The notes: generated from the sequence alone by a model not told the origin. A stretch of 64,000 bases of DNA from Gemmatimonadota bacterium (GCA_041487875.1 JBGPOE010000002.1:8121-72120), one strand, 5' to 3'. Positions 1-55,289 are shown, numbered from the stretch's first letter. Numbers and translations are program-made.

Positions 1-654
1 TTCTCTCAGGAAGTCGGCCTGTTGATGACGGTCTCCGATCTGTCGGTGATCCAAGTGAAGGTGCAGGTGGACGAGACCGACGTGGTCCGCGTTCACTTGG
101 GCGATTCAGTGGAAGTGTCGATCGACGCCTTCCCCGATACGGTCTTCGCGGGGCGGGTGACGAAGATCTCCGATAGCGCGATCCTCACGGCCGGAGCATC
201 GGTGGCCGGCAGCAACACGCAGGCGGTGGATTACCAGGTGGAAATCACCTTGAACAATCCGCCGTCCGACGTACGCCCGGACCTCTCCGCCACGGCGCGC
301 ATCATCACCGATACGCGCCGGCAAGCCCTGGCGATCCCGATCATTGCGTTGACGGTGCGCGAGAACAGTCCCGTGGCCACCGAAAACCGGCCGCGCCCGG
401 TCGACACAAGCAAGGCCCCCGGGAAGAAGCGCGACACAGAAGGCGTGTTCATCATCACGAACGGCGTCGCGACGTTCCGGCCGGTGAAGGTCGGCATCGC
501 GGGCGACGAGTATTTCGAAGTGCTGGACGGCGTGCGCGAAGGAGAGCAGATCGTCGCGGGCCCCTATCAGGCGATCCGCGACCTGCGTGACGGGACGCAC
601 GTGCGCGAGGCGAAGCAGCGCGCCGATACCACCAAAGTGAAGAAGACCTCCTGA
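1..654 (+). CDS. Efflux-pump periplasmic adaptor subunit (HlyD/MacA family), C-terminal part; the 5' end lies upstream of the window
   Basis: The frame is open from base 1; the listed ORF 22..654 is only the first in-window Met. The sequence is adaptor-like ([39 protein letters not shown]). The stop overlaps the next gene's ATG (TGATG). Confidence 0.7.
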
Positions 655-1385
655 TGAGCCAGCCCCAGGAGTTCCGCACGGGCGACACGCCCCTGCCGGA
701 CATCATCATTCTGACCCACAAGCTGGCGCGCGACTACGACATGGGGTCGGAGATCGTGCACGCGTTGCGTGGGGTGAGTTTCCAGATCCGTCGCAACGAG
801 TACGTGGCGGTGATGGGGCCGTCCGGCTCGGGCAAGTCCACGCTCATGAACCTGATCGGCTGCCTCGATACGCCGAGCGCCGGCGAGTACTGGCTCAACG
901 GACAGAAGGTCAGTGATCTGTCGGACGACGAGCTGGCCCACATTCGGAACAAGGAGATCGGGTTCGTCTTCCAAACCTTCAATCTCCTGCCCCGCGCGAG
1001 CGCGCTCCACAACGTGGAGCTGCCGCTGATCTATGCGGGCGCCTCGGCCAAAGTCCGCCGTGAACGGGCGGCCGAAGCGCTGGCGAGCGTGGGCCTGGGC
1101 GACCGCATGGAACACAAGCCGAACGAGCTGTCGGGCGGACAGCGCCAGCGGGTGGCGATCGCCCGCGCGCTGGTCAACAGGCCGAGCATCCTGCTCGCGG
1201 ATGAGCCCACGGGGAATCTCGACTCGGCGACGAGCAGCGAAATCATGGACGTGTTCGCCACGCTGCACGACCAGGGGCAAACCGTGGTGATGGTGACGCA
1301 CGAAGCCGATATCGCGGCGCACGCCAAGCGGGTCGTGACCCTGCGCGACGGACTCATCGCCACGGATCAAGCCCGAGCGGCCTGA
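654..1385 (+). CDS. ABC transporter ATP-binding protein, MacB/LolD type
   Basis: Walker [10 protein letters not shown], signature [15 protein letters not shown], Walker [13 protein letters not shown] and H-loop VTHE. It lies between the adaptor and the permeases. Confidence 0.92.
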
Positions 1386-1386
1386 G

Positions 1387-2625
1387 ATGCGAATCTTCGA
1401 AGCGATCCGGCTGGCCTTGCAACAAATCCGCGCGCAGAAGCTCAAGAGCGGCTTCTCCCTCATCGGCGTGTTCATCGGCGTCACGTTCTTGATCGGCGCG
1501 TGGTCGATCGTGAACGGCATGAACGTCTACATGACGGACAAGTTCGCGGGAACGCTGGTGGGCGTAAACACCTTCCACCTGAGGCGCGCGCCCAACGTCA
1601 ACTTCAACGTCGACGACTCGGTGTGGCGCTCCTGGCGACGGCGCCCCCGCATCAAGTTCGCGGATGCGAACGCCGTAACAGAGAAGTTGACGGTGCCGGT
1701 GCTGACGGCCTGGTATTCCGAAGACCGCGGGCCGGTCGAATTCAACGGCAAGGTGGCGAAGGACATTACGCTCGAGGGTGCCACCGAGCGGTACTTCGAC
1801 ATCATGAACTTGACCATCGCCATCGGCCGCCCGTTCACGGCCGAGGAGTCGAAAGCGGGCGTGACGGTGGTGGTGCTGGGCTGGGACCTGGCTCAGAAAC
1901 TGTTCCAGGACCTGAACCCCATCGGCCGCAAGGTGCGGATTCACGGCATACCCTATCGCGTGATCGGCGTGGTGGAGCGCCAAGGTAATCTGTTCGGCAT
2001 CTCGCTCGACAAGTTCGTGGTGGCCCCCGCGCTCTCGCCGATCCAGCGCGAGGTGAACCCGCCGGGAGTGGTCGACGCGCTCATTATCAAGGCGAACTCC
2101 GAGCCTGAGATGCGCGAAGCCATGGACCAGACCGAGGCCGTCATGCGCAGCCGGCGGCATCTGCGGCCCCGCCAGGACGACAACTTCGCGATGATGACGT
2201 CGGAGGGCGTGCTGGACTTCTGGAAGAAGCTCAGCCGCATCCTGTACGTCGTGGGACCCGGCCTCGTGGGCGTGGCGCTCGTGGTGGGCGGCATCGTGAT
2301 CATGAACATCATGTTGATGGCGGTGGCCGAGCGGACGCGCGAGATCGGGATTCGCAAGTCGCTCGGCGCCCGCCGCCGCGACATCATGCGCCAGTTCCTG
2401 GCCGAGGCCACCGCACTCGCCACGGTGGGCGCGAGCCTCGGCATCGTAACGGGCGTTGGTTTGTCGTTGCTGCTGAAGGTGGCCACACCGTTGCCAGCCG
2501 CGGTGTCGCCGTTCTCGATCGTGCTCGGGGTGATCGTGGGCGGCGGCGTCGGCATCGTGGCCGGCGTCTATCCCGCGAGCCGGGCGTCGCGGCTCGATCC
2601 CATCACGGCGTTGCGCCAGGAGTGA
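1387..2625 (+). CDS. MacB/FtsX-type ABC permease, type A copy 1
   Basis: 412 aa. N-terminal TM (MRIFEAIRLALQQIRAQKLKSGFSLIGV), a large periplasmic segment, and a C-terminal FtsX bundle with AERTREIGIRKSLGARRRDI. It ends LDPITALRQE. Confidence 0.88.
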   Translation: MRIFEAIRLALQQIRAQKLKSGFSLIGVFIGVTFLIGAWSIVNGMNVYMTDKFAGTLVGVNTFHLRRAPNVNFNVDDSVWRSWRRRPRIKFADANAVTEKLTVPVLTAWYSEDRGPVEFNGKVAKDITLEGATERYFDIMNLTIAIGRPFTAEESKAGVTVVVLGWDLAQKLFQDLNPIGRKVRIHGIPYRVIGVVERQGNLFGISLDKFVVAPALSPIQREVNPPGVVDALIIKANSEPEMREAMDQTEAVMRSRRHLRPRQDDNFAMMTSEGVLDFWKKLSRILYVVGPGLVGVALVVGGIVIMNIMLMAVAERTREIGIRKSLGARRRDIMRQFLAEATALATVGASLGIVTGVGLSLLLKVATPLPAAVSPFSIVLGVIVGGGVGIVAGVYPASRASRLDPITALRQE

Positions 2626-2629
2626 TCGC

Positions 2630-3865
<1,236 letters not shown>

Positions 3866-3871
3866 CACGGC

Positions 3872-5113
3872 ATGTCCTTCATCGAAGCGATCCGCCTCGC
3901 CCTGCAAAGCCTGCGCACGCAGAAGCTCAAGAGCGCGTTCTCCCTGATCGGCGTCATCATCGGCGTGATGTTTCTGATCGCCGTGGTGTCGATCGTCCAG
4001 GGAATGAACCGCTACATGACCGACAAGTTCGCCGGTACGCTGCTCGGCGTGAACACCTTCCGCTTGCGCCAGTTCCCCGACGTCCAGCTGGGCAACGTGA
4101 CCGATTCCACCTGGCGGTCCTGGCTGCACCGGCCGCGGATCTCCTACGAGGACGCCCAGGCGGTGATGCAGGAGCTGTCCGTGCCGGTGACGACGGCATG
4201 GGAGTCTTCGACCCGCGCCACGCTCGAAGGAGGCCGCAAGATCGCCAAAGATGTCGATGTTACGGCGGCGACCGAGCGGTACTTCGAGATCCGGTCGCTC
4301 ACGATCGAGCAGGGGCGGGCGTTCACGCCCCAAGAAGTGCACGCGGGAGTGCCGGTGGTCGTGTTGGGCTACGAGCTTGCGGCCAAGCTGTTCGAGGGTG
4401 AGGATCCGCTCGGACACGAAGTGAAGATCTTCGGCCTGCCCTATCGCGTGATCGGTGTGGTCGAAAAGCAAGGGAATCTGTTCGGCCTCTCGCTCGACAA
4501 GTTCGCCGTCACGCCCGCCACGGCGCCGGTCAAGCGCTACGTCAACCCGCCGCGCATCGTGGACGCGCTCGCCGTGCGGGCGGGTTCGCTCCCGGAGATG
4601 CGGGAAGCGATGGCGCAGGCTGAGGGGATCATGCGCACCCGGCGGCACCTGCGGCCGCGCGATCCCGACAATTTCGCGCTCGAGACCGCGGACGAAGTGC
4701 TCGACTTCTGGGGGAAGATCAGCCGCGTGCTGTTCCTCGCCCTGCCGGGCCTGGTAGCGATCTCGCTGGTGGTGGGCGGCATCGTGATCATGAACATCAT
4801 GCTCATGGCGGTGGCGGAGCGCACGCGGGAGATCGGGCTGCGCAAGTCGTTGGGCGCCCGCCGGCGGGACATTCTCCGCCAGTTCCTGGTCGAGGCGACG
4901 ACGCTGGCCACGGTCGGGGCCGCGATCGGAGTCGCCACGGGCATCGGGCTGGCGGGGTTGGTTGCCGCGTTCACACCGCTGCCGGCGAGCGTCGCCCCGT
5001 GGTCGGTGGCCGTGGGCGTGACGCTCGGGGCGACGGTCGGGATTGTCGCGGGCGTATATCCCGCGAGCCGCGCTGCGCGGCTGGACCCGATCGCGGCGTT
5101 GCGGCAGGAGTGA
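3872..5113 (+). CDS. MacB/FtsX-type ABC permease, type A copy 2
   Basis: 413 aa and collinear with 1387..2625 (MSFIEAIRLALQSLRTQKLKSAFSLIGV ... LDPIAALRQE). Confidence 0.88.
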   Translation: MSFIEAIRLALQSLRTQKLKSAFSLIGVIIGVMFLIAVVSIVQGMNRYMTDKFAGTLLGVNTFRLRQFPDVQLGNVTDSTWRSWLHRPRISYEDAQAVMQELSVPVTTAWESSTRATLEGGRKIAKDVDVTAATERYFEIRSLTIEQGRAFTPQEVHAGVPVVVLGYELAAKLFEGEDPLGHEVKIFGLPYRVIGVVEKQGNLFGLSLDKFAVTPATAPVKRYVNPPRIVDALAVRAGSLPEMREAMAQAEGIMRTRRHLRPRDPDNFALETADEVLDFWGKISRVLFLALPGLVAISLVVGGIVIMNIMLMAVAERTREIGLRKSLGARRRDILRQFLVEATTLATVGAAIGVATGIGLAGLVAAFTPLPASVAPWSVAVGVTLGATVGIVAGVYPASRAARLDPIAALRQE

Positions 5114-5117
5114 GCGC

Positions 5118-6353
5118 GTGACCCCCCTGTTCGAAGGCGTCGGCATCGCGCTGGGCTCGCTCCGGGCCAACAAGGGGCGCGCCGCGCTCACGATCCTGGG
5201 TGTGGCGATCGGCGTGATGGTGGTGATGATCATCGCCTCGATGATCAGCGGCATCAACCGCAGCGTGTCGAACACCTTCGAGCAGATCGCGCCGCGCACT
5301 TTCCTGGTGTGGCGGTTCTTCCAGGCCGGCGTGAACATCTCCGACGGGTCGGACGAGAACAGCCCGTGGCGTCGCAACCCGGCGATCAGCGAAGCGGAGG
5401 CCGATCGCATCGCCCAGCTCCCCAGCGTGCGCTATGTCACGCGCCGCGATGAGAGCTCGGCGCAGGTGGAATTTGGCGACCGCAAGTTGGAGTCGGTGAG
5501 CATCTCCGGCCTGAGCTCGCAGTGGATCGAGGTGAACGGTGGTGACATCTACCCCGGCCGCTCGTTCACGCATATGGAGGATCTGGCCAACAGTCGCGTT
5601 GTCGTGATCAGCCGGAAACTCGAGTCGCAGCTGTTCGAGGGTCGCGACCCGATCGGCCAAACGGTGAAGATCGCCGGCGTGCATTTCGAGGTAATCGGCG
5701 TCTACACGCCGCCCGCTAGCTTGTTCAGCGGCGCCAGCCCGCCGTTCGCCGGGATGCCCCACGGCGCGTTCGTGAAATACATCCCCTTCTTCAAGGGGTG
5801 GATGCGGCTGGCGGTCGCGCCGGACGTCAATATCCCGCAGCAGCAGGCCATCGACGAGGTGACGGCCACGCTGCGCTCGATGCGCAATCTCAAGCCCGCG
5901 CAGGAGAACACGTTCTCAATCGTGACGCAAGACAAGCTGCTGGACAGCTGGCACCAGGTCACCGGCGTGTTCTTTCTGGTCATGATCGCGCTCTCCTCGA
6001 TCGGCTTGATGGTGGGCGGCGTGGGCGTGGTGGCGATCATGATGATCTCGGTCACGGAGCGGACCCGGGAGATCGGCGTGCGCAAGGCGCTGGGCGCCAC
6101 GCGGCGCGAGATCCTGTGGCAGTTCCTGGTCGAGGCGGCGACGCTCACGTTGGTGGGCGGGGCCATCGGCATGCTGGTGGGGGGCCTCGTGGCCTGGCTG
6201 CTCTCGGCGGTTACGCCCATCCCCGCCTACGTCCCCGTGTGGTCCGTGGTGGTGGCACTCGCGGCGTCTGCGCTTACGGGAATTGGGTTCGGACTGTACC
6301 CGGCCAATCGCGCGGCCAAGCTCGATCCGGTGGACGCGCTGCGCTACGAATAA
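5118..6353 (+). CDS. MacB/FtsX-type ABC permease, type B copy 2
   Basis: The GTG at 5118 gives an N-terminus VTPLFEGVGIALGSLRANKGRAALTILGV that matches B copy 1. The listed ORF start at 5043 would overlap the preceding gene. Ends LDPVDALRYE. Confidence 0.85.
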   Translation: MTPLFEGVGIALGSLRANKGRAALTILGVAIGVMVVMIIASMISGINRSVSNTFEQIAPRTFLVWRFFQAGVNISDGSDENSPWRRNPAISEAEADRIAQLPSVRYVTRRDESSAQVEFGDRKLESVSISGLSSQWIEVNGGDIYPGRSFTHMEDLANSRVVVISRKLESQLFEGRDPIGQTVKIAGVHFEVIGVYTPPASLFSGASPPFAGMPHGAFVKYIPFFKGWMRLAVAPDVNIPQQQAIDEVTATLRSMRNLKPAQENTFSIVTQDKLLDSWHQVTGVFFLVMIALSSIGLMVGGVGVVAIMMISVTERTREIGVRKALGATRREILWQFLVEAATLTLVGGAIGMLVGGLVAWLLSAVTPIPAYVPVWSVVVALAASALTGIGFGLYPANRAAKLDPVDALRYE

Positions 6354-6370
6354 CGCTGCGCTACGAATAA
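6337..6370 (+). repeat. Perfect 17-bp tandem duplication (CGCTGCGCTACGAATAA x2) including the stop codon of the permease at 5118..6353
   Basis: Read directly: 6337..6353 is identical to 6354..6370. Confidence 0.9.
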
Positions 6371-6376
6371 CAGCGA

Positions 6377-6449
6377 CGGAATGACGGAATGACGGATGGG
6401 GGATGCGGAGACGCGTGCCGCATCCCGTTTCCGTCTTACCGTCCTTCCG
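6377..6449 (+). repeat. Long imperfect hairpin built from 7-8-nt words (GACGGAAT/GGGGGAT)
   Basis: The arms at 6377..6408 and 6418..6449 are complementary at about 26 of 32 positions with a 9-nt loop, followed by the U-containing CTCCGTTTAGCTTTCG. This is the only long gap inside the permease array. Confidence 0.7.
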
Positions 6450-6472
6450 GCTCCGTTTAGCTTTCGAACGCC

Positions 6473-7720
6473 ATGCAGCTCACCGAAGCGATTGTCCAAG
6501 CCCTACAGGCGGCGTGGAGCCACAAGCTCCGCTCGTTCTTCACGCTGCTCGGGATCATCGTGTCGGTCGCGTTCCTCGTGGCCGTGGTGGCGGTGATCCA
6601 GGGTATGAACGCCTACGTGCGCGAGAAGATCGGTGGCGCCATCGTGGGCGTGAACGCCTTCCAGGTGCGCCGTACGCCGATCGCCATCGGACTCATCGAC
6701 GACGAAGAATGGAAGGCGATCCAGCGGCGGCCGATCATCGCCCCGGAAGACGTGGCGTACGTGGAGCGCGCCATCCCCGAGGCCAGGGCCGTGGCGCTGC
6801 AATCGGGCTGGCCCACGCCGCAGGCGGACATCGTGTGGCGCGACCGCACGGTGGGAGACGCATTCGTGTTCGGCGTGACGGCGCCGTTCCAGGTGGTGCA
6901 GGACTACGAGTTCGCCGCGGGCGAGCCGCTTTCCGACCTGGACGTGCGCGAGCGCCGCCCGGTGGTCGAACTGGGTTTCGACATCGCCGACAAGTTGTTC
7001 GACCACAACTTGGCGCTGGCGGTGGGCCAGAGATTGCGCATCCGGGGCCAGCAGTACACGGTCCGAGGGGTGATCGCCAAGAAGGGCACGGTGCTGGGGC
7101 AATCCTGGGACGGGTTCGTGATGATGCCGCTCACCACGTTCGAGAGCCTGTACGGGCGGCGCCAGACCACGGTGATCTCCGTGAAGATGCCGGACGCCGA
7201 ATCGGTGACGTCGGGGATGCAGCGGGCCGAGGAGGCGATGCGCATCGCGCACCGGCTGCGGCCCGGGGCGCCCGACGATTTCACGGTCGACACGGCGGAC
7301 GCGCTGGTGAGTTTCTGGAAGAGTTTGACGCGCGTGCTATTCGCCGTGGTCCCCATGATGGTCATCATCGGGATCGTGGTCGGCGGCATCGTGATCATGA
7401 ACATCATGCTGATGAGCGTGAATGAGCGCACGCGGGAGATCGGGATCCGCAAGTCGCTGGGCGCCACCCGGCGCGACATCCGGCGTCAGTTCCTGGCCGA
7501 GTCCGGGACGCTGGCGCTGGTGGGCGGGGCGCTCGGCCTCGCGGCGGGCGTCACGCTCGCGTGGCTGGTGGCCGCGATCTCGCCGCTGCCGACGCGGGTG
7601 CCGTGGTGGGTGCCGCCGCTGGCGCTGGGCATCGGAGCCGGCGTGGGCATTCTGTTCGGCGTCTACCCCGCGATGCGAGCGGCGCGGCTCGACCCGATCG
7701 TGGCGCTGCGGGCCGAATGA
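6473..7720 (+). CDS. MacB/FtsX-type ABC permease, type A copy 3 (more divergent)
   Basis: 415 aa. MQLTEAIVQALQAAWSHKLRSFFTLLGI, NERTREIGIRKSLGATRRDI, ends LDPIVALRAE. Confidence 0.85.
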   Translation: MQLTEAIVQALQAAWSHKLRSFFTLLGIIVSVAFLVAVVAVIQGMNAYVREKIGGAIVGVNAFQVRRTPIAIGLIDDEEWKAIQRRPIIAPEDVAYVERAIPEARAVALQSGWPTPQADIVWRDRTVGDAFVFGVTAPFQVVQDYEFAAGEPLSDLDVRERRPVVELGFDIADKLFDHNLALAVGQRLRIRGQQYTVRGVIAKKGTVLGQSWDGFVMMPLTTFESLYGRRQTTVISVKMPDAESVTSGMQRAEEAMRIAHRLRPGAPDDFTVDTADALVSFWKSLTRVLFAVVPMMVIIGIVVGGIVIMNIMLMSVNERTREIGIRKSLGATRRDIRRQFLAESGTLALVGGALGLAAGVTLAWLVAAISPLPTRVPWWVPPLALGIGAGVGILFGVYPAMRAARLDPIVALRAE

Positions 7721-8958
7721 AGCTCCACTCGCTCACCGAAGGGCTGGCCATCGCGATCGAGCAGCTGCGCGCCAACAAGCTGCGCTCGGCGCTGACGATC
7801 CTGGGGGTGGTGATCGGCGTGTCGACGGTGATGGCGATGGCGTCGATCGTGCAGGGCATCCGCGACCAGATCATCAACACGATCGAAGTCGCGGGGCCCA
7901 CCACATTCTACGTGATGCGCTTCTTCTCGCAGACGCCGCTCAATCCCGACGCGCTCCCGAAGGCGGTGCGCATCCGCCCGGTGCTGAAGCCGCGGGAGGC
8001 GGAAGCGCTGGCGCGGCTGCCCGAAATCCGCTACGCCGGCATTTGGGTGCAGCTGTTCCAGAAGATGGAGTACCAGGGCACGCGCACCCAGTTGATGACG
8101 CAGTTCGGCGCCGACGAGCACTACATGGAGATCCAGGGGGGCCAGCTCCTGGAGGGCCGGTTCTTCACGCCGGCGGAGCTGAACGGCGGCGATCCGGTGG
8201 TGGTGCTGGAGCAGAAGCCTGCCGAGCGGTTGTTCGGACGGCTCGACCCGCTCAATCGCTACGTGCGCCTCGCGGGAAAGTCGCTGCGCGTGATCGGACT
8301 GTATCAGAACCCCGACAACATCTTCCAGCCACCGTCGCAGGAAATCGGCGCCATCCTGCCGTTCGAGACGGCGCGGCGGTTTTTCCGCTACGACGAGACC
8401 AACGCGTTGTGGATCGTCGTCAAGCCGCGGGACGGGGTTGCCGTGACCCAGGCGATGGACGCGGTGACGTTGCAGCTCCGGCGCATGCGCAGCCTGCGCC
8501 CCGGCGACCCCAATTCGTTCGACCTGATCAGCCAGGACCAGATCCTCAGCGTGTTCGACAGCTTGACGTCGACCTTCTTCGTCGTGATGCTGGCGCTCTC
8601 GAGCGTGGCGTTGATGGTGGGCGGCATCGGCGTGATGGCGATCATGATGGTGTCGGTCACCGACCGCACCCGCGAAATCGGCGTCCGCAAGGCCATGGGT
8701 GCCACGCGCCGCGAAATCATGTGGCAGTTCCTGGTTGAAGCCGCGACGTTGACGCTGCTGGGCGGCGTGCTCGGCATCGTGCTGGGCCTGACGCTGGGCC
8801 AGGTAGTGAAGACCGTCCTGGGCTACGACGCGCATGTGCCCGTCTGGAGCGCTGCCGCGGCATGCCTCGTCTCCGTGCTGATCGGGCTGGTGTTCGGCGT
8901 GGCCCCGGCCGCACGGGCGGCGAAACTCGATCCGGTGGAGGCTCTCCGTCATGAGTGA
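7717..8958 (+). CDS. MacB/FtsX-type ABC permease, type B copy 3 (more divergent)
   Basis: The ATG at 7717 overlaps the previous stop (ATGA). N-terminus MKLHSLTEGLAIAIEQLRANKLRSALTILGV, motif TDRTREIGVRKAMGATRREI, ends [10 protein letters not shown]. Confidence 0.85.
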   Translation: MKLHSLTEGLAIAIEQLRANKLRSALTILGVVIGVSTVMAMASIVQGIRDQIINTIEVAGPTTFYVMRFFSQTPLNPDALPKAVRIRPVLKPREAEALARLPEIRYAGIWVQLFQKMEYQGTRTQLMTQFGADEHYMEIQGGQLLEGRFFTPAELNGGDPVVVLEQKPAERLFGRLDPLNRYVRLAGKSLRVIGLYQNPDNIFQPPSQEIGAILPFETARRFFRYDETNALWIVVKPRDGVAVTQAMDAVTLQLRRMRSLRPGDPNSFDLISQDQILSVFDSLTSTFFVVMLALSSVALMVGGIGVMAIMMVSVTDRTREIGVRKAMGATRREIMWQFLVEAATLTLLGGVLGIVLGLTLGQVVKTVLGYDAHVPVWSAAAACLVSVLIGLVFGVAPAARAAKLDPVEALRHE

Positions 8959-9673
8959 CGAAGTCGAACTGCTGGCGATCGCCGCGCACCGCGACGACGT
9001 CGAGCTCACGTGCGGCGGCACGCTGGCCAAGGCAGTGCAGCAGGGTCACCGCGTGGGCATCGTCGATCTGACACAAGGCGAGACCGGCACGCGGGGCGAC
9101 GCGGCGACGCGGGCCGCCGAAGCGATGCGGGCCGCCACGGCCCTGGGCGTGCAGGTGCGGCTCAACGCCGGCCTGCCCGACGCGCACCTGCACAACGACG
9201 AAGCGTCGCGCGCGGTGCTGGTCGAGCTGATCCGGCGAACGCGGCCGCGCGCGGTTATCCTGCCCTACGCCGTGGGCCGCCACCCCGACCACCGCACGGC
9301 GGCCGAGTTGGGGCGCGACGCCTGCTATCTGGCGGGCCTCGCCAAGTTCGGCGGCGCGGGTGCGCCGCACCGGCCGTTCAAGATCCTGTACGCGCTGGCC
9401 TATCGCGAAGACCCGGTGAAGCCGTCGTTCGTGGTGGACATCTCGGACAGCTTCGACGCGAAGATGAAAGCGATCCGCTGCTACGCCTCGCAGTTCGACG
9501 GCGCCAAGGCCGCGGGCGAGATCTTCCCCACCGGACAGGACCTGTACGAACTGATTCGCATCCAGTCGGCACACTACGGGTCGCTGATCCGCCGCCCCTA
9601 CGGCGAGCCGTTCTTCACGTACGAGACCGTGGACGTGGACGACGTGTTGCAGCTTGGCGTGCAGTCCCTGTAG
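8951..9673 (+). CDS. bshB1: PIG-L/LmbE-family deacetylase, bacillithiol biosynthesis BshB1-like
   Basis: [37 protein letters not shown] and [23 protein letters not shown] parallel my recollection of B. subtilis BshB1. The start overlaps the last permease by 8 nt. Confidence 0.7.
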
Positions 9674-9690
9674 CCGATACATTGCCTGCC

Positions 9691-10866
9691 ATGAGCAAGC
9701 GCGTGGTGTATCTCGACAACGCGGCCACGACGCCGGTGCGGCCCGAGGTGCTCGAGGCGATGCTGCCCTATCTGGGCGCCGAGGCGTTCGGGAACCCGTC
9801 CTCGGCGCACCGGTTCGGGCGCGCGGCGCGGGCGGGGATCGAGGAAGCGAAGCGCACGATCGCCGACGCGCTGGGCGCCGAGCCGAACCAGGTGATCTTC
9901 ACCTCAGGCGGCACGGAGGCGGACAACCTCGCGGTCATCGGCGCGGCGCTGGCGGCGCGCGAGCGCGGCGGGCCGTTCCGGGTGGCCGTGTCGGCGATCG
10001 AGCACAAGGCGGTTCTCGCCGCGGCGCACGCCGTGAAGCAGCTCGGCGGAGACGAGGTGATCCTGCCGGTCTCGAGTGCGGGCCTGGTGGACGAGGCGGC
10101 GCTCGCCGCCGCGCTCGCGGGCGGGCTCGCGGTGGTGAGCGTGATGTGGGTGAACAACGAAGTGGGCGTCGTGCAGGCCGTGGCGCGTCTGGCCGAGCGA
10201 TGTCGGGCGGCCGACGTCTGTTTCCATTCCGACGCCGTCCAGGCGTTCGGCAAGGTTCCCGTGTCATTCTCCGACGTCCCCTGCACGCTGCTGACCATCT
10301 CCGGCCACAAGATCGGCGCACCCAAGGGCATCGGCGCGCTCATCGTGCGCGACCGCCGTGCGGTGGAAGCGATCATCCACGGCGGCGCGCAACAGTTCGG
10401 GATCCGGCCGGGGACGGAAAACGTGCCCGGGATCATCGCGCTGGGGCGGGCGGTGGCGTTGGCGGCGGCCGAGCAGGCGACGTGCGCCGCGCGGCTCGAG
10501 GCGCTGCGCGAGGACCTGGAGCAGCGGCTGGTCGCCGTGGTACCGGACGCGGTGATCAACGCCTGGCACGCCCCGCGCGCGCCACACGTCACCAACGTGT
10601 CGATTCCCGGCACCGACAGCGAAGCGCTGCTGATGCATCTCGACCTCGCCGGGATCGCGTGCTCGTCGGGCTCGGCATGCAACACGGGCTCGGTGGAGCC
10701 GTCGCACGTGCTGACGGCGATGGGCGTGCCGCGCGAGCTGGGCGTCGCGGCGCTGCGCTTCTCCTTCGGCCGGGACAGCACGGCCGAGGACGTAGACACG
10801 GTGATCGCGGCGCTGCCGAAGATCGTGGCGAAGGTGCGGTCGTTGAGCGCGGTGCTGCACCGATGA
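9691..10866 (+). CDS. Class I cysteine desulfurase (NifS/IscS/YrvO-like)
   Basis: [15 protein letters not shown] at the N-terminus, PLP lysine motif [14 protein letters not shown], and catalytic loop [17 protein letters not shown]. The long upstream in-frame extension from 9010 overlaps bshB1 and is rejected. Confidence 0.88.
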
Positions 10867-11960
10867 GAAGCGAACGCGGAACGCGGAATGGGGAATGCGG
10901 AACAGGTGCCCGCGTGCTGGTGGCGATGTCCGGCGGAGTGGACTCGTCCGTGGCTGCCGCCCTGCTAGTCGAACAGGGCTATGACGTCATCGGCGCGACG
11001 CTGAAGCTGTTCTGCTACGGCGACGACGTGCCGGATCGCCCCTGCTGCTCGCTCGATTCGATCACCGACGCGAAGCTGGTGGCGCACAAGCTGGGCATTC
11101 CCCACTACGTGCTCAATCTGGAAGACCGCTTCGGCCACGACGTGATCGACGACTTCGTGCGGGAATACGCCCGGGGCCGCACGCCGATCCCCTGCGTCCG
11201 CTGCAATGCGTTCACCAAGTTCCGAGACCTCCTGTCCCACGCCGACGCGCTGGACTGCGACTACCTGGCTACGGGCCATTACGTGACGGCGCGGGACGGC
11301 GCGCTCTTCCGCGGGCGCGATCCCCAAAAGGATCAGTCGTATTTCCTCTGGGGCATCAACCGCGCCGTGGTACAGCGGATGCTCGCCCCCGTGGGCGGAC
11401 TCACCAAGCGCGAGACGCGGGCCGTGGCCCGCCAGCTCGGCCTCGTGACCGCCGACAAGGTCGAATCGGTGGAGATCTGCTTCGTCCCCGACGACGACTA
11501 CGTGGCGGTACTCGAACGGCGGCTGCCGGCCGACGCCCCGGCGCTCACACCGGGCCCGCTCGTCACCACGGGTGGCGATGTGGTGGGCGAGCACGCCGGG
11601 TTCGCGCGCTACACCATCGGCCAGCGGCGCGGGTTGCCGGGCGGGTTTGCCGAGCCGATGTACGTGGTCGCGATCCGGCCCGAGACGCGCGAGGTGGTGG
11701 TGGGTCGGGGCGAGGAGTTGTTCGGACACACCGTGTCCCTCGACGAGGTCAACTGGCTCACGGAGCCGCTCGCGGCCGGCGATCCCGTATGGGTGCAGTG
11801 CCGCTACCGCGCCCGCGCCGTGCCCGGCACGGTAGATGCAATCGGCAACGGACGGCTCGCGCTCCGGCTGGCGGAGTCGGTCCGGGCGATCACGCCCGGT
11901 CAGTCGGGCGTCCTGTACGACGACAGCGAGCGCCTGCTCGGAGGCGGCCTCATCGCCTGA
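10863..11960 (+). CDS. mnmA: tRNA 2-thiouridine(34) synthase MnmA
   Basis: PP-loop [18 protein letters not shown] and a typical MnmA body. The ATG at 10863 overlaps the nifS-like stop (ATGA). The alternative GTG at 10914 gives the canonical short N-terminus and would leave the heptamer array 10870..10903 intergenic. Confidence 0.85.
10870..10903 (+). repeat. Tandem heptamer array GCGAAC GCGGAAC GCGGAAT GGGGAAT GCGGAAC
   Basis: Read directly. It lies between the nifS-like stop and the PP-loop region of mnmA. Confidence 0.85.
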
Positions 11961-12033
11961 GTGCCCCAGGTCACATCCCGCCCCGCGCCGGCCAGCTAGC
12001 ATAGGGGTTCCGGACATTCTTTCTGGAGGTGCC

Positions 12034-13158
12034 ATGAGCAGCTTCCGCGTTCTGCGCTATCTGGCCGGAGGCGCGGCGCTCGCCGCGATCGTCGTGGCGT
12101 GCAGCGACTCGACCGGCCCGGGTTCGCTCGCCAATCCGACCCAAACGTCGGCGGCGGTGGCGAGCATAGACAGCTCGTTCGCCACACCCGTGTTCCGGAG
12201 CTTCGCCGCCGTGGGCAGCGCGCTCTCCGCCACAGGCCCCGCGGCCGCCGCGCCCATCGGCGGGCTGCTCTGGGGGACGTTGCCCCACGTCCCGGGCCTC
12301 GCGGGCCGGGCATTCTCGAACGCGGCACGGGCGCGCGCCCTGCAGCGGCTGGCACCGGCGCTCAGCCTGATGGCTTCGCCGTCGGGCATTTTCCCGGATT
12401 CGGTGCGCGGCAAGACGTTCACCTACAACTGCGCGGGCGGCGCCTACATCCGCGATACCCTCTCCGGTGCCGACGCCAATGGCATCCGGATTCTCTTGTA
12501 TGCGGTCGACACGACCGCCACGATCGTCTGCCCGGCCACGGAGGTCGGGTACGTCGATATCATCGACGTCGGCTCGGCGACCGTGCCCGCGGTGCGCTTC
12601 GTCGTGAAGAGCGCGAACGGCACGGTCACCTACGTCGATTATACGGTCAGCGGCCACAGCACCAGCACGTCGTTCACAGCGTCGGTGGCGGGATACGTGA
12701 CGGATGGCTCGCACCGGCTCGATTTCGCGATGACGGTCACCGGCAACCTCACCGGCGTCACGGCGAACGCCACGCTCGACAACAACGCGGCGGATGCGCA
12801 CGTGGCGCTGTATGAGCGGATCACCCAGACCACAGACGGTCTGTCGCTTACGGTCGACTACCGCATCACCCACGGCGGCGAGAGCGTGCGGCTCTCCGGC
12901 AGCCTGACGGTGGATACGCTCGGCAATGTGACGGCGCATTTCACGATCCAGGCGGGCGGCGGCACCTTCGCCACCATCACCGCGACGCCGAGCGACACGG
13001 GCGAAGTGGTGACCTTCACGGGGCCGGGCGGGCGGCAACTCACGGCGGACGAGCTGGCCGCCCTCGGGCGCCTCTTCGAAGCGCCGCAGGACCTGTTCGA
13101 CGAGCTGGGCGACTTGGTGAACCCGGCCGGTAACCTGATCGGTTTCGGCGGCCCGTGA
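12034..13158 (+). CDS. Hypothetical lipoprotein, paralog 1 of 3
   Basis: GGAGG lies upstream of the ATG. Signal peptide with lipobox (AAIVVAC). Shares FPDSVRGKTFTYN, GIRILLYAVD and the C-terminal LTADELAALGRLFEAP with the next two genes. Confidence 0.7.
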   Translation: MSSFRVLRYLAGGAALAAIVVACSDSTGPGSLANPTQTSAAVASIDSSFATPVFRSFAAVGSALSATGPAAAAPIGGLLWGTLPHVPGLAGRAFSNAARARALQRLAPALSLMASPSGIFPDSVRGKTFTYNCAGGAYIRDTLSGADANGIRILLYAVDTTATIVCPATEVGYVDIIDVGSATVPAVRFVVKSANGTVTYVDYTVSGHSTSTSFTASVAGYVTDGSHRLDFAMTVTGNLTGVTANATLDNNAADAHVALYERITQTTDGLSLTVDYRITHGGESVRLSGSLTVDTLGNVTAHFTIQAGGGTFATITATPSDTGEVVTFTGPGGRQLTADELAALGRLFEAPQDLFDELGDLVNPAGNLIGFGGP

Positions 13159-13184
13159 CGGGCTGACCCGGGATGGCAAGCATG

Positions 13185-13230
13185 CGCCCCCGTCGGGCCC
13201 TGGCCCGGCGGGGGCGTTCATGTTATTCGT
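13185..13230 (+). terminator. Intrinsic-terminator-like hairpin after lipoprotein paralog 1
   Basis: CGCCCCCGTCGGGCC / GGCCCGGCGGGGGCG arms with 1 mismatch, followed by TTCATGTTATTCGTT. Confidence 0.55.
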
Positions 13231-13243
13231 TGAGGGTCCGGTC

Positions 13244-14224
13244 ATGCGACATCCGGCCTTCGCAGTCCGCCTGGCGCTCGTTCCGCTCAGCCTTCTGGGC
13301 GCGGGCTGCGCCGACCCCGTCGAGCCCGCGCGTCCGCCGGACCCGGTCCCGACGGTGTCGGCCATGACCGACGCCGACGCCATCCTGCGAGCCTCCCTGC
13401 TGCAAACCTACATAGCGCTCGCGCCCCAGATGGCCGTGGCGCGCGGGTCCGGGACCGTGTTCGGCGACACGCTGTTCGGCAAGACGCTCGAGTGGAGCCC
13501 GGCGGACGCGCGCTACCTCGAGGGCGCGCGGGCGGGGGCGCCGGCCGGCGCGGTGCGGTTCCTCCTGTACCGGCCCGACGCCACCACCAACGCCAATCCC
13601 ACCTACCCGCTGGTGGAAGTGGGCATCACCGACCAGATCGCCACGACGAGCCGCGGGGCTCCCGCCCTGCACACCGTGCTGCGCGACTCGGCGGGCGCAC
13701 TCCCGGCCGGGGATTACGTGGTGGGCGGCAGTTTCGGCACCGAGGCGTACACCGTCACCCTCGACGGGACGATCCGCCAGGCGGTGGCCGGGACGGTGCA
13801 TATGACGCTCGACGTCGCGCCGACGATCACCCAGGCGCTCATCACGGTGGCCGTGCCCCAGCGGGACGTGGCAGTGCGTTCGTTTCACTCGGATGTCGTG
13901 GCCGGGGACACGTTGTTCGGCTCGCTCGACTTCCGGGTCACGCACGGCGGGCACACGGTCAGCATGATCGGGACGTTCGTCCTCACCCACGTCGCCGCTG
14001 CCCGCCCCGACGAGATGCTGGATCTGACATTCCGGGACGGCTCAGTGACCTTCGCCACGATGCGCGGCACGGCCGACGCGCCGCAGATTCTGGACGGTGA
14101 CGGCGCGGCTGTCTCGAGCGGCGCCGCGTTTGCGATCTCCCGCCTGCTCGGCGCTCCGGATCGCTACTTCACGAGCGTTACCCGCATGGCGCAGCCCGAC
14201 TTCGCGCTGTTGCGGGGGTATTGA
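13244..14224 (+). CDS. Hypothetical lipoprotein, paralog 2 of 3
   Basis: MRHPAFAVRLALVPLSLLGAGC lipobox. Shares the GKTLEW and VRFLLYRPD motifs with its neighbours. Confidence 0.65.
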   Translation: MRHPAFAVRLALVPLSLLGAGCADPVEPARPPDPVPTVSAMTDADAILRASLLQTYIALAPQMAVARGSGTVFGDTLFGKTLEWSPADARYLEGARAGAPAGAVRFLLYRPDATTNANPTYPLVEVGITDQIATTSRGAPALHTVLRDSAGALPAGDYVVGGSFGTEAYTVTLDGTIRQAVAGTVHMTLDVAPTITQALITVAVPQRDVAVRSFHSDVVAGDTLFGSLDFRVTHGGHTVSMIGTFVLTHVAAARPDEMLDLTFRDGSVTFATMRGTADAPQILDGDGAAVSSGAAFAISRLLGAPDRYFTSVTRMAQPDFALLRGY

Positions 14225-14235
14225 GTCTGCGACGA

Positions 14236-15183
14236 ATGCCCCGCCGCACCTGGGTGTTGCTCGTCGTAGTCGTGGCGTGCACCGACCTCGGCTCGACCGT
14301 GATTCCTTTCGCCCCCGACGTCATCGCGGCGAACATCAATACCGCCACGGGTCTGATCACGTCTCCCGTGTTCGCGAGCTTCGCCGGGCTCGGGCCGCTG
14401 ATCCGGGTCCCCGGCACGTCGCCCACGGCGCCGTACTTCCCCGACTCCCTGCGGGGCCGCACGTTTACCTGGAATATCGGCACACACGCGTACGCGCTGG
14501 CCACGCAGGATACGACGCCCGCGCGCGGCGTGCGCTTCATTCTGTACGCCGCCGATTCCGTGACCGGGCGCCCGGTGGAGCCCACCGCCCAGATCGGGAC
14601 CGCCGAGTTTCAGGACGGCCCGCCCGATACCACCGCGCTGCACGTGCGCGTGGACGGGGGCGCGCCCGAGACCGTCGTCGCCTACCTGCTCAGCGGCACG
14701 TTTCACGCGGACTCGTTCCAGGCCGTGGCGGGCGGCTGCGTGGACGACAGCAATGCGCGCAATCTGTGCGTCACGGCGAGCGTGCAGCAGCGGCTCGCGG
14801 GCGGCGTTACGATCGTGACCATCTCGGGGACCGCCACGGCGACGGCCGTGTCGTTCGCCTTCGATCTCGTGTTCCACTTCTCGGCCACGGGATTGGTTGA
14901 TACGGTGGACGTGAGCGCCCTGTCCGACATCGAGTCGCAGCAGATTCGCATGTCCGGCACGACACAATTCGGGACCGTCACCAAGGCGGATCTCGCCTTG
15001 AGCGTGAACGACAAGCCGTTCGCCACGGTGCGCGGTACGGGGACGCTGACCGTGCGCCGCTCCAACGGCGAGGCCCTTTCCGCGGAGGAGCAGGCGCTGA
15101 TCGGTGCGATGTTCGCACTGCCGGGCGAGCTGCTCGACCTGTGCCGGGCGCTGGCGCGCCCGGGCCAACAGCTGCTTTCTTGA
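14236..15183 (+). CDS. Hypothetical lipoprotein, paralog 3 of 3
   Basis: MPRRTWVLLVVVVAC lipobox. FPDSLRGRTFTWN, GVRFILYAAD and LSAEEQALIGAMFALP are shared with paralog 1. A TTG at 14221 is an alternative start. Confidence 0.65.
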   Translation: MPRRTWVLLVVVVACTDLGSTVIPFAPDVIAANINTATGLITSPVFASFAGLGPLIRVPGTSPTAPYFPDSLRGRTFTWNIGTHAYALATQDTTPARGVRFILYAADSVTGRPVEPTAQIGTAEFQDGPPDTTALHVRVDGGAPETVVAYLLSGTFHADSFQAVAGGCVDDSNARNLCVTASVQQRLAGGVTIVTISGTATATAVSFAFDLVFHFSATGLVDTVDVSALSDIESQQIRMSGTTQFGTVTKADLALSVNDKPFATVRGTGTLTVRRSNGEALSAEEQALIGAMFALPGELLDLCRALARPGQQLLS

Positions 15184-40295: not shown

Positions 40296-41021
40296 ATGAT
40301 CGAGGTCAAGGATCTCACCAAGCTGTATGGCACGCTGACCGCCGTGTCCGAGCTCTCCTTTGGCGTGGCCGCGGGCGAGGTGCTGGGGTTGGTGGGGCCC
40401 AACGGCGCGGGCAAGACCACCACCCTGCGCAGCATCGCCGGCATCATCCGGCCGACCCGGGGGCAGATCGTGATCGGCGGCCACGACCTGCAGCGGCAAC
40501 CGGTCGCCGCCAAGGCCCTGCTCGCCTTCATGCCGGACGAGCCCCGCCTGTTCGACTATCTCACCGTGGAAGAGCACCTCCGTTTCGTCGGCCGGCTGTA
40601 CGGCGTGGCCGACGTGGACACCCGGGCCCCTGCCCTACTGCAGGAACTGGAGCTCGTCGACAAGGCCAAGACGCTCCCCGGGGAGCTGTCGCGGGGCATG
40701 AAGCAGAAGCTGACGATCGCGTGCGGCCTACTGCACGAGCCCAAGGCGCTGTTGTTCGACGAGCCGCTCACGGGGCTCGATCCGGTGGGGATCCGCCGCA
40801 TGAAGCAGACGATCGTCGAGCGGGCCCGCCGCGGCGCGGCCGTGCTGCTGTCCTCGCACCTGCTGCATCTGGTGGAGGAGATCTGCACCCGGGTGCTCAT
40901 CATCCAGCGCGGCCGTAAAGTCGCGCACGGCAGCATCGCCGAGATCCTGGCCGGCCGGCCCGACCTGCAAGGGCGGAGCCTCGAGGAGGTGTTCCTCGCG
41001 CTGACGGGCGCCGAGACGTGA
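40296..41021 (+). CDS. ABC transporter ATP-binding protein (ABC-2/DrrA-like)
   Basis: Walker A GPNGAGKTT, signature LSRGMKQKL, Walker B LLFDEPLTGLD. Confidence 0.9.
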   Translation: MIEVKDLTKLYGTLTAVSELSFGVAAGEVLGLVGPNGAGKTTTLRSIAGIIRPTRGQIVIGGHDLQRQPVAAKALLAFMPDEPRLFDYLTVEEHLRFVGRLYGVADVDTRAPALLQELELVDKAKTLPGELSRGMKQKLTIACGLLHEPKALLFDEPLTGLDPVGIRRMKQTIVERARRGAAVLLSSHLLHLVEEICTRVLIIQRGRKVAHGSIAEILAGRPDLQGRSLEEVFLALTGAET

Positions 41022-47717: not shown

Positions 47718-48251
47718 TCACAAAGTTGGCCGCGCCAGCGGAAACCGTCCCGCGCGGTGCCGCTCGGCTTCCTTCACATAGTGCTCCCAGGTGCTCCGAA
47801 TCCGCGCCGCGAGCGCCGGGTCCACCGCCCGGGCCACCCGGCCCGGTATCCCCATCACCAGCGACCCCGGCGGCACGCGCATCCCCTCCGGTACCACCGC
47901 CCCCGCCGCTACGACGCTTCCGGTCCCGATACGGACCCCATTCAACAGGACACTGCCCATCCCGATCAGGCAGTCGTCCTCGATGGTGCAGCCATGGATG
48001 ATCGCCCGGTGCCCGATGCCCACCCGGGCACCGATCAGGGCGGGCTTGCCCTCATCCACATGCACAATCGTGCCGTCCTGCAGGTTCGTCGCCTCGCCCA
48101 CGACGATCGCGGCCATGTCGCCCCGCAGCACGGCCTGGTACCACACGCTGGCGCGCGGCCCGAGCGTGACGTCGCCCAGGACGGCGGCCGTGGGGGCGAT
48201 GAACGCCGTGGGATCGATGTTGATTACTGTCTCGTCGGCTGGAACGGCCAC
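47718..48251 (-). CDS. Gamma-carbonic-anhydrase-like hexapeptide-repeat protein (YrdA/PaaY family)
   Basis: GTG start giving VAVPADETVINIDPTAFIAPTAAVLGDVTLG. SVWYQAVLRGD and HGCTIEDDCLIGMGS follow. It overlaps the upstream kinase gene by 28 nt. Confidence 0.8.
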   Translation of the reverse strand: MAVPADETVINIDPTAFIAPTAAVLGDVTLGPRASVWYQAVLRGDMAAIVVGEATNLQDGTIVHVDEGKPALIGARVGIGHRAIIHGCTIEDDCLIGMGSVLLNGVRIGTGSVVAAGAVVPEGMRVPPGSLVMGIPGRVARAVDPALAARIRSTWEHYVKEAERHRAGRFPLARPTL

Positions 48252-52367: not shown

Positions 52368-52404
52368 CGCTATTCCATTATACCCGGCCGCCCGCGAGCG
52401 TTCG

Positions 52405-55197: not shown

Positions 55198-55289
55198 AGG
55201 CGCGCAAGCTACTGTCTCCCCTTTCGACCCGTCAATTTCACCAATAGATTGGCGTACCTTTACTTGGGCTTCGTGAGGTTCCCCCATTC

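Follow-up and report, generated by a model that had tools for sequence, protein, structure and literature searches.

We analysed a stretch of 64,000 nucleotides from a Gemmatimonadota bacterium (GCA_041487875.1, JBGPOE010000002.1:8121-72120; hereafter the window), whose first 8,958 nucleotides carry most of the operon of a putative efflux pump with paired permeases. The source is a soil bacterium, and the pump operon is taken as chromosomal. Positions 1-8958 form a dense run of plus-strand genes with 64-69% G+C, and the operon is ordered TolC-like gene, adaptor, ATP-binding cassette (ABC) ATPase and six permeases in the order A, B, A, B, A, B (Table 1). An initial annotation of the window had described one adaptor, one ATPase and six permeases of about 410 aa; all were found where it had placed them, on the plus strand and with matching Pfam domains, and the N- and C-terminal signatures that it quoted for permease types A and B are present in the translations. 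Neighbouring genes overlap or are separated by 1-6 nt throughout, with the exception of the 119-nt spacer between B2 and A3. Within the pairs, A1/B1 and A2/B2 are each separated by a 4-nt gap while A3/B3 overlap by 4 nt (ATGA), and the start of the ATPase gene overlaps the stop codon of the adaptor gene.

Table 1. Features of the pump operon and of the gene that follows it, in window coordinates.
Feature	Position	Strand	Remarks
Adaptor, C-terminal part	1..654	+	last 217 aa of a 427-aa MacA/YknX-type periplasmic adaptor; HlyD_D23, HlyD_3 (Pfam)
ABC ATPase, 243 aa	654..1385	+	MacB nucleotide-binding domain/LolD/FtsE type; Pfam ABC_tran E 1.6e-35
Permease A1, 412 aa	1387..2625	+	MacB_PCD + FtsX; A clade, type I; second transmembrane helix GGIVIMNIM, Val304
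Permease B1, 411 aa	2630..3865	+	MacB_PCD + FtsX; B clade, type I; second transmembrane helix GGIGV, Gly303
Permease A2, 413 aa	3872..5113	+	MacB_PCD + FtsX; A clade, type I
Permease B2, 411 aa, GTG start	5118..6353	+	MacB_PCD + FtsX; B clade, type I
Structured spacer, 119 nt	6354..6472	+	between pair 2 and pair 3
Permease A3, 415 aa	6473..7720	+	MacB_PCD + FtsX; A clade, type II (bootstrap 100)
Permease B3, 413 aa	7717..8958	+	MacB_PCD + FtsX; B clade, type II (bootstrap 100)
BshB1 (bacillithiol deacetylase, PIG-L family)	8951..9673	+	NCBIfam TIGR04001 230.5 bits, cut-off 182.5

An exact-match look-up of the ATPase sequence recovered two contigs, L001 and L002. L001 is a metagenome contig that is 99.96% identical to window positions 1-11171. 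The adaptor gene starts upstream of the window and is complete on L001 (3204-4487), where it is directly preceded by a gene for a 490-aa OEP/TolC-like protein. The full adaptor has BSH_RND, Beta-barrel_YknX and YknX_C domains, scores 158.8 bits against the NCBIfam model RND_mfp (cut-off 94.9) and matches MacA with an E value of 7e-39. The starts at 5118 (GTG) and 7717 (ATG) agree with independent Joint Genome Institute gene calls on L001. The proteins of L002 are identical to the end of that contig, which lies within the 5' part of A1. We found the identical six-gene layout, with orthologues 62-81% identical, in a Gemmatimonadales metagenome-assembled genome (MAG) from a different study (L029). 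Since L001, L002 and L029 carry a matching layout, the gene arrangement is not an assembly artefact.

All six permeases are intact (411-415 aa) and exceed the Pfam cut-offs for MacB_PCD (E 1e-31 to 1e-36) and FtsX (E 1e-22 to 1e-25). Hydropathy profiles have four hydrophobic segments, with transmembrane helix 1 (TM1) at about residues 24-42, a loop of about 250 aa after it and three more helices past residue 280. The MacB_PCD domain thus lies between TM1 and TM2 and the FtsX domain forms the C-terminal three-helix part; together with an ATPase of the MacB/LolD/FtsE type, this is the composition of a type VII ABC transporter. The ATPase translation has a Walker A motif, the signature LSGGQRQR and the Walker B sequence ILLADEPT, and its top NCBIfam models are the nucleotide-binding domain (NBD) half of MacB (267 bits) and LolD (233 bits), followed by DarD and FtsE. 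Alignments of A1 and B1 with the solved MacB structures 5lil, 5gko and 5nik and with Spr0695 (5xu1) cover the proteins from end to end, at E values of 3e-30 to 3e-45. A1 matches 5lil over its full length (E 1e-42), while the best solved match of B1 is 5xu1 (E 2.8e-45), with 5lil at 5.6e-45. For the four permeases scanned, the top NCBIfam model is the permease half of MacB at 155-179 bits.

MacB proper is a single fused NBD-permease protein of about 650 aa, whereas NBD and permease are separate genes here, and both the four scanned permeases (155-179 bits) and the ATPase (267 bits) stay below the 966-bit cut-off of the MacB equivalog NF007826. Against the LolCDE models the scores are 49-62 bits for lolCE TIGR02212 (cut-off 362) and 18-36 bits for LolC and LolE, where the cut-offs of the three models range from 362 to 540, and solved LolC (7arh) is matched at E 7e-5 in its C-terminal TM part only. 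These scores, together with the adaptor and the TolC-like gene in the operon, led us to reject a Lol system. The ADOP model TIGR03434 is matched at 100-153 bits against a cut-off of 622; each 411-415 aa protein holds one repeat, not the two halves of a protein of about 800 aa. Because no NCBIfam equivalog cut-off is reached, a standard annotation pipeline would probably assign a generic name only. An adaptor and an outer-membrane factor are encoded with the transporter, as expected for a tripartite pump, and the same layout occurs in 10 Gemmatimonadota loci. Judged from its genes, the locus is thus predicted to encode the components of a tripartite type VII ABC pump that resembles MacAB-TolC but has a separate ATPase. 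The permeases belong to a large family: a HMMER search with A1 against 1.84 billion representative sequences returned 3480 clusters at 50% identity with E <= 1e-30.

The initial annotation had proposed that the permeases alternate between two sequence types and that pair 1 resembles pair 2 more than either resembles pair 3, and the pairwise identities agree with both statements. Identity is 41-67% within a type and 31-39% between any A and any B. A1 and A2 are 67% identical and B1 and B2 59%, while A3 is 41-43% identical to A1/A2 and B3 43% to B1/B2. At the DNA level, 1.5 kb of pairs 1 and 2 can be aligned with an identity of about 74%, which rises to 82-84% in short stretches. We also observed 82-84% DNA identity over about 250 bp among B1, B2 and B3 in the segments that encode TM2 and the coupling loop (3425-3744, 5979-6232 and 8518-8765); this could reflect strong constraint plus a bias in third-position G+C content (GC3), or gene conversion among the paralogues.

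We scanned a species-representative genome collection with a profile of the six-protein alignment, which gave 80 loci, and mapped all operon proteins onto every locus. A neighbour-joining tree was built from 181 full-length permeases of 82 loci with 100 bootstrap replicates. The nearest loci to the window are Gemmatimonadota MAGs. We found that A and B form disjoint clades of 75 sequences each, with members in Gemmatimonadota, Acidobacteriota, Eisenbacteria, Vicinamibacterales and others. The six window proteins separate into these two alternating clades also when the 175 further homologues are included, and within Gemmatimonadota the A and B clades each have bootstrap 100. Gene order, judged by stop codon, is always A then B (39 AB, 8 ABAB and 2 ABABAB loci, plus truncated cases); the order BA was not found among the 82 loci.

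The two subtrees are congruent. Type I (A1/A2 and B1/B2) has bootstrap 100 and 99 and type II (A3 and B3) 100 and 100, and the split between them is kept across Gemmatimonadota, with orthologues 57-67% identical. One duplication of type I took place in the lineage that includes the window and L029 and another, independent one in the lineage of L006, L008, L011 and L012, and both partners were copied each time. Because the subtrees are congruent and record at least two separate copyings of type I, the array is traced to two pair duplications, the first old and the second younger. This modifies the earlier description of a triplicated module: there are three A/B pairs, but they did not come from a single triplication. 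The arrangement is shared with other genomes. Syntenic Gemmatimonadota operons carry one pair (L007, L014, L077), two pairs (L004, L012, L040, L010) or three pairs (the window, L029, L011 and L008, whose third pair is inverted), and loci of other phyla have one or two, with double pairs in Blastocatellia, Eisenbacteria and Acidoferrales (L023, L024, L039, L050). The inverted third pair of L008 is of type II, and a type II pair is detached in L042 and L043. Taken at the level of sequence and gene order, this shows the A/B pair to be an old unit that was copied, lost and moved whole, a history in keeping with a two-part permease whose variants share one motor.

Other loci with an adaptor and an ATPase (L044, L051, L064, L073, L076, L080 and L082, and also L047 and L060) have two adjacent permeases as well. 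The first and second genes fall into separate clades with bootstrap 74 and 61, and their TM2 motifs are FVGGIG.MNIMF and.VAGIGIMNIML, with the canonical Gly in both. In the tree, a second paired family comprises loci of Chitinophagales, Verrucomicrobiae, KSB1 and Woeseiaceae, and Myxococcota have a third, with TM2 Gly in both partners of each. Paired MacB-type permeases seem, from these trees and motifs, to have arisen more than once. By the same kind of comparison, the A/B split is placed inside the MacB-like branch, where it would have arisen independently of LolC/LolE.

In the alignment of 69 A with 75 B sequences, the two clades are told apart without exception at a single column, namely the TM2 position that corresponds to residue 304 of A1. 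It is Val in 75/75 A proteins and Gly in 75/75 B proteins, and the Val-bearing set is exactly the A clade. Gly occupies this position in 29/31 of the remaining permeases in the tree and also in E. coli MacB, A. actinomycetemcomitans MacB and Spr0695, within the motif VGGIGVMNIM. Among the best 150 matches of the HMMER search, 64 of the 116 that bear the motif are of the Val (A-like) type. At the other end of the protein, position 411, which adjoins the C-terminus, is aromatic (Tyr, His or Trp) in 72/75 B proteins and Ala, Gln or Ser in A. TM1 and TM2 of both MacB protomers form a central four-helix bundle (PMC5985334), and the C-terminal helix of MacB is a minor coupling helix that contacts the NBD (PMC5985334). 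Since B keeps both the TM2 Gly and the ancestral aromatic residue at the C-terminus, it seems to be the canonical subunit, and A a derived partner in which the change from Gly to Val is invariant. Val304 of A may face Gly303 of its partner B. All three window pairs consist of an A gene followed by a B gene, with Val and Gly respectively at this position and membership of the separate clades.

We compared the domains of the six permeases for divergence. The cytoplasmic coupling loop, with its conserved motif ERTREIG.RKALGA, is 83-96% identical within A or within B and 65-74% identical between A and B, and TM2-TM4 are 61-73% identical within A or within B. The Sabre and Porter-C periplasmic subdomains are 46-59% identical between pairs 1 and 2 and 13-30% between types I and II. 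A difference in divergence between the periplasmic and the membrane or cytoplasmic parts, which the initial annotation had put forward as a check, is therefore present.

A second MacB-type ATPase, which would have spoken against a shared motor, was found neither in the 64 kb window nor in the 4.5 kb upstream of it, and across the collected loci there is at most one MacB-type ATPase per locus regardless of the number of pairs. The window has one other ABC ATPase, a DrrA/GldA-like protein of 241 aa (40296-41021, plus strand). It was rejected as a second MacB-type motor, being of the DrrA/ABC-2 type with its own 577-aa ABC_export permease; that system ends at 42751. A MacB-type ATPase is missing from the vicinity of the pair in 19 of the 29 loci that are flanked by at least 5 kb on each side, and most of these 19 are from Acidobacteriota. 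Since pairs that rely on an ATPase encoded elsewhere are common in the A/B family, sharing inside the window operon is plausible. Many orphan pairs in Acidobacteriota have neither a MacB-type ATPase nor an adaptor within the 5-10 kb fetched on each side; orphan-pair loci include L015, L021, L027, L034-L036, L038, L041, L050, L053, L066, L074 and L075.

Apart from the spacer between pairs 2 and 3, no gap from the adaptor gene to the gene downstream of B3 exceeds 6 nt. This spacer opens with an exact tandem copy (6354-6370) of the final 17 nt of B2 (6337-6353), stop codon included. It can form a long, imperfect hairpin with 40-nt arms (6369-6408 and 6418-6457), a minimum free energy of -54.3 kcal/mol and z = -4.2 against shuffled sequences, and this hairpin is partly made of GACGGAAT repeats. 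A consensus scan of the spacer found neither a terminator nor a sigma-70 promoter. Repeat-built hairpin spacers between pairs are also present in L029 (GGGAAAC repeats), L040, L006 (ACGGTAG repeats) and L011, and the within-pair junctions listed for the compared loci are 0-5 nt or short overlaps. The hairpin in the window may attenuate or stabilise the transcript, or may mark a recombination junction; as a group, the spacer hairpins may represent an intergenic repeat element specific to the lineage, or they may be regulatory.

We consider it probable (about 0.62) that the operon encodes a MacAB-TolC-like pump in which three A/B heterodimeric permease modules share one ATPase, one adaptor and one channel. 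Most likely, each A/B pair would form a heterodimer as LolC and LolE do. Each heterodimer would bind two copies of the single ATPase through the nearly invariant coupling loop and would sit beneath a common adaptor hexamer and channel. The outcome would be three pumps whose main differences lie in the periplasmic Porter and Sabre domains and which would thus probably handle different ranges of substrates, in an array that would have grown by tandem duplication of whole A-B units, the old type I/II split preceding the later duplication of type I. We infer heterodimerisation from the strict adjacency and order of the genes, the equal clade sizes, the repeated co-duplication and co-relocation, the within-pair translational coupling and the asymmetry in TM2 and at the C-terminus. 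Sharing of the motor is suggested by the single ATPase per locus, the orphan pairs elsewhere and the near-identical coupling loops, and specialisation for substrates and sharing of the adaptor and channel are likewise proposed. At the level of genes, the strict A-B pairing, the co-duplication and the equal clade sizes would fit a heterodimer with two copies of one ATPase, as in LolCDE. The proposal of the initial annotation, heterodimeric permease modules that share an ATPase and an adaptor, thus appears to be the best supported by the sequences. A broader version is more tentative, and we would give it less than even odds: that the A/B pair is a previously undescribed, phylum-spanning heterodimeric class of MacB-type transporter, in which the invariant Val/Gly asymmetry of TM2 would make A the obligate partner of B and the pairs would be portable cartridges, present as one to three in cis or as orphans, that take turns on a single ATPase dimer and on a single adaptor and channel where these exist.

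Several points weigh against a pump with three heterodimeric modules. Contact between A and B is deduced here from genes and sequences, and an A-B fusion protein was not found among the best 150 matches of the A1 search. An 824-aa double permease (P0006) was rejected as such a fusion, both of its halves being of the canonical Gly type and mutually close; gene fusion was not used as support for the pairing. Across phyla, the exact A and B clades are recovered in only 39 and 33 of 100 bootstrap replicates. This modest value arises because a few borderline taxa shift, and the best-matching split per replicate has a mean Jaccard overlap of 0.96-0.97 with the A and B clades. The rest of the genome could hold further ATPases. 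Fast periplasmic divergence is normal in the MacB/FtsX family and hence no proof of substrate specialisation. The ratios of nonsynonymous to synonymous substitution (dN/dS) against L029 are only rough, with dS compressed by extreme GC3; they lie at 0.15-0.45 across the six genes, which indicates purifying selection on all. Pair 2 is the most conserved (A2 81% identical to its orthologue, dN/dS 0.15; B2 80%, 0.19), pair 1 has dN/dS values of 0.35-0.45, and change is fastest in the periplasmic domains of B1 and B3.

Of the other ways in which the six permeases might assemble, combinatorial mixing, in which any A could join any B to give up to nine permeases instead of three cognate pairs, is unlikely in our view. 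The similarity of TM2-TM4 and of the coupling loop within each type and the tight clustering of all genes would permit it, but the branching of the A and B trees agrees even for the recent duplications, and this suggests that cognate partners co-evolve. Translational coupling within pairs by 4-nt gaps or an overlap likewise favours assembly of neighbours, and type II was relocated as a pair. We think it slightly more doubtful still that the operon makes six separate homodimers on a shared ATPase, with the A/B alternation a relic of duplication. The solved tripartite MacB-type permeases are all homodimeric (5lil, 5gko, 5nik, 5xu1), and homodimerisation of B, which retains the canonical motifs, is plausible. 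Homodimers, however, would be expected to show single losses or gains. The A and B proteins are instead equal in number (75 and 75) with a fixed A-B order, partners were duplicated, inverted and relocated together in several lineages and phyla, and A has an invariant derived Val where its homodimeric relatives have Gly.

Two further explanations concern what the extra pairs do. One or more pairs, especially type II, might act without adaptor and channel, as an extractor or mechanotransmitter like LolCDE, YbbAP or FtsEX, and only borrow the ATPase. Adaptor-less type VII systems are well known (PMC5985334), most A/B pairs of Acidobacteriota have no adaptor within 5-10 kb, the type II pair lies away from the adaptor and TolC genes in L042 and is inverted relative to the operon in L008 and L043, and in the window pair 3 is preceded by the 119-nt hairpin spacer. 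Yet type II is co-oriented inside the pump operon in the window and in L029, L004, L040, L010 and L011, its best matches are MacB and not LolC/E or FtsX, and no LolA-like or hydrolase partner gene was seen nearby; we regard this explanation as distinctly improbable. Least probable of all, and in our judgement very unlikely, is that the extra pairs are recent redundant copies, unspecialised and kept for dosage or drifting to loss. Copy number does vary from 1 to 3 among related genomes, so that extra pairs are dispensable in some lineages, and pair 1 evolves faster than pair 2. Against redundancy, all six open reading frames (ORFs) are intact and retain all 54 family-conserved residues, each is under purifying selection and has its own orthologue in L029, the type I/II split is old, and the periplasmic domains of the two types are far too diverged for dosage copies. 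The heterodimeric modules on a shared motor, channel and adaptor remain our preferred reading.

Genes next to the operon were also noted. A gene for a 221-aa protein with a hydrophobic N-terminus (L001 914-1579) lies directly upstream of the TolC-like gene and has homologues of 25-33% identity in L004, L008, L011, L012, L014, L040 and L077. Model scans gave no family match for it (top DUF6134, E 0.29); it could be an accessory or periplasmic pump component. The 132-nt spacer after this gene is apparently lower in G+C and may hold the operon promoter. Downstream, BshB1 overlaps the B3 stop codon by 8 nt. The gene comes after the permeases in 10 Gemmatimonadota loci, in some cases on the opposite strand (L043); its position is conserved, and it is probably not part of the pump. 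It is followed by a class V aminotransferase gene (9691-10866, plus strand). Elsewhere in the window, three consecutive ORFs (440, 334 and 320 aa; 11836-15183, plus strand) and two large ORFs (773 and 959 aa; 50133-55287, minus strand) have high GC3 and no Pfam match. The two large ORFs adjoin a gene for a 615-aa Ser/Thr protein kinase (48224-50074, minus strand) with an unusual combination of an N-terminal zinc ribbon and C-terminal PEGA, CarboxypepD_reg and TonB_C domains.

If A and B are obligate heterodimers, tripartite type VII pumps can have asymmetric permeases. Such asymmetry would matter for the entry of substrates into the periplasmic cavity and for the docking of six adaptor copies on a non-symmetric base, and the invariant Val/Gly position would offer a simple, testable handle on dimer specificity. 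If one ATPase powers several permease modules, this would explain many 'orphan' FtsX/MacB genes in Acidobacteriota and Gemmatimonadota, and counts of ATPase genes would underestimate the efflux repertoire of those soil phyla.

A review of the MacB family lists homodimers (MacB, FtsX), one heterodimer (LolCE) and fused forms (BceB, YbbP) and mentions neither a heterodimeric tripartite pump nor a multi-pair array (PMC5985334). Our searches of the full-text literature found no description of heterodimeric tripartite MacB-type pumps or of tandem permease-pair arrays, and the passages on heterodimers in a large review of tripartite pumps added no further case. Similar clusters are annotated in P. 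gingivalis, where PG0679-PG0685 and PG1662-PG1667 each have a TolC-family protein, an adaptor, one ABC ATPase and two or three permease genes, PG0679-PG0685 being annotated as TolC, adaptor, three permeases and one ATPase (PMC12094164, table). This likeness is drawn from the annotation table, and no functional or structural study of such multi-permease MacB-type clusters was found in the searchable full-text literature. The paired and multiplied permease modules of this MacB-type tripartite pump are made of ordinary components in an arrangement that is common within the phylum.

Compared with MacAB-TolC of E. coli, A. baumannii and A. actinomycetemcomitans, the window system is alike in fold, domain order, the four TM helices, the MacA-like adaptor, the TolC-like channel gene in the operon and the coupling-loop motif, and the permeases align with 5lil, 5gko and 5nik over their full length at E 1e-40 to 1e-45. 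It differs in that the ATPase there is fused to one homodimerising chain, whereas here the ATPase is separate, the subunits are of two kinds and there are three pairs per ATPase. Spr0693-0694-0695 of S. pneumoniae and YknXYZ of Bacillus share with the window a separate ATPase and permease genes of about 410 aa beside a MacA/YknX-type adaptor. These, however, are Gram-positive systems with a single homodimeric permease and no outer-membrane channel, while the window comes from a diderm with a TolC-like gene and three A/B pairs. Among type VII systems, LolCDE is the only well-described case in which two different permease subunits share a homodimeric ATPase (PMC5985334), and the stoichiometry proposed here, A/B plus two ATPase copies, is modelled on LolC/LolE and the LolD dimer. 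Unlike LolCDE, the window operon has an adaptor and a TolC-like channel, and a LolA-like gene was not seen.

ADOP (TIGR03434), YbbP and other fused double FtsX permeases belong to the same superfamily and also have two non-identical MacB-type halves, often encoded away from an ATPase; they demonstrate that unlike halves of this kind can function together. Of the scanned proteins, those of type A fit the N-half of the ADOP model best and those of type B its C-half, but here the halves are separate genes that score 100-153 bits against 622. Two ADOP-like proteins in the fetched loci are without the TM2 motifs of A and B; their C-halves prefer the B profile (103 vs 79 and 97 vs 79 bits) and their N-halves do not discriminate. 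A direct evolutionary link of the A/B pair to ADOP is unproven. In function, the closest analogues lie among importers. In group II energy-coupling factor (ECF) transporters and with the multitask ATPases MsmX and MsiK, one energising module serves several interchangeable membrane or substrate-specific modules, whose genes lie in cis or at other sites. The folds are unrelated and the analogy is a functional one only. If the sharing proposed for the window holds, the A/B system would be an exporter-side counterpart of group II ECF transporters or of MsmX-type shared ATPases.

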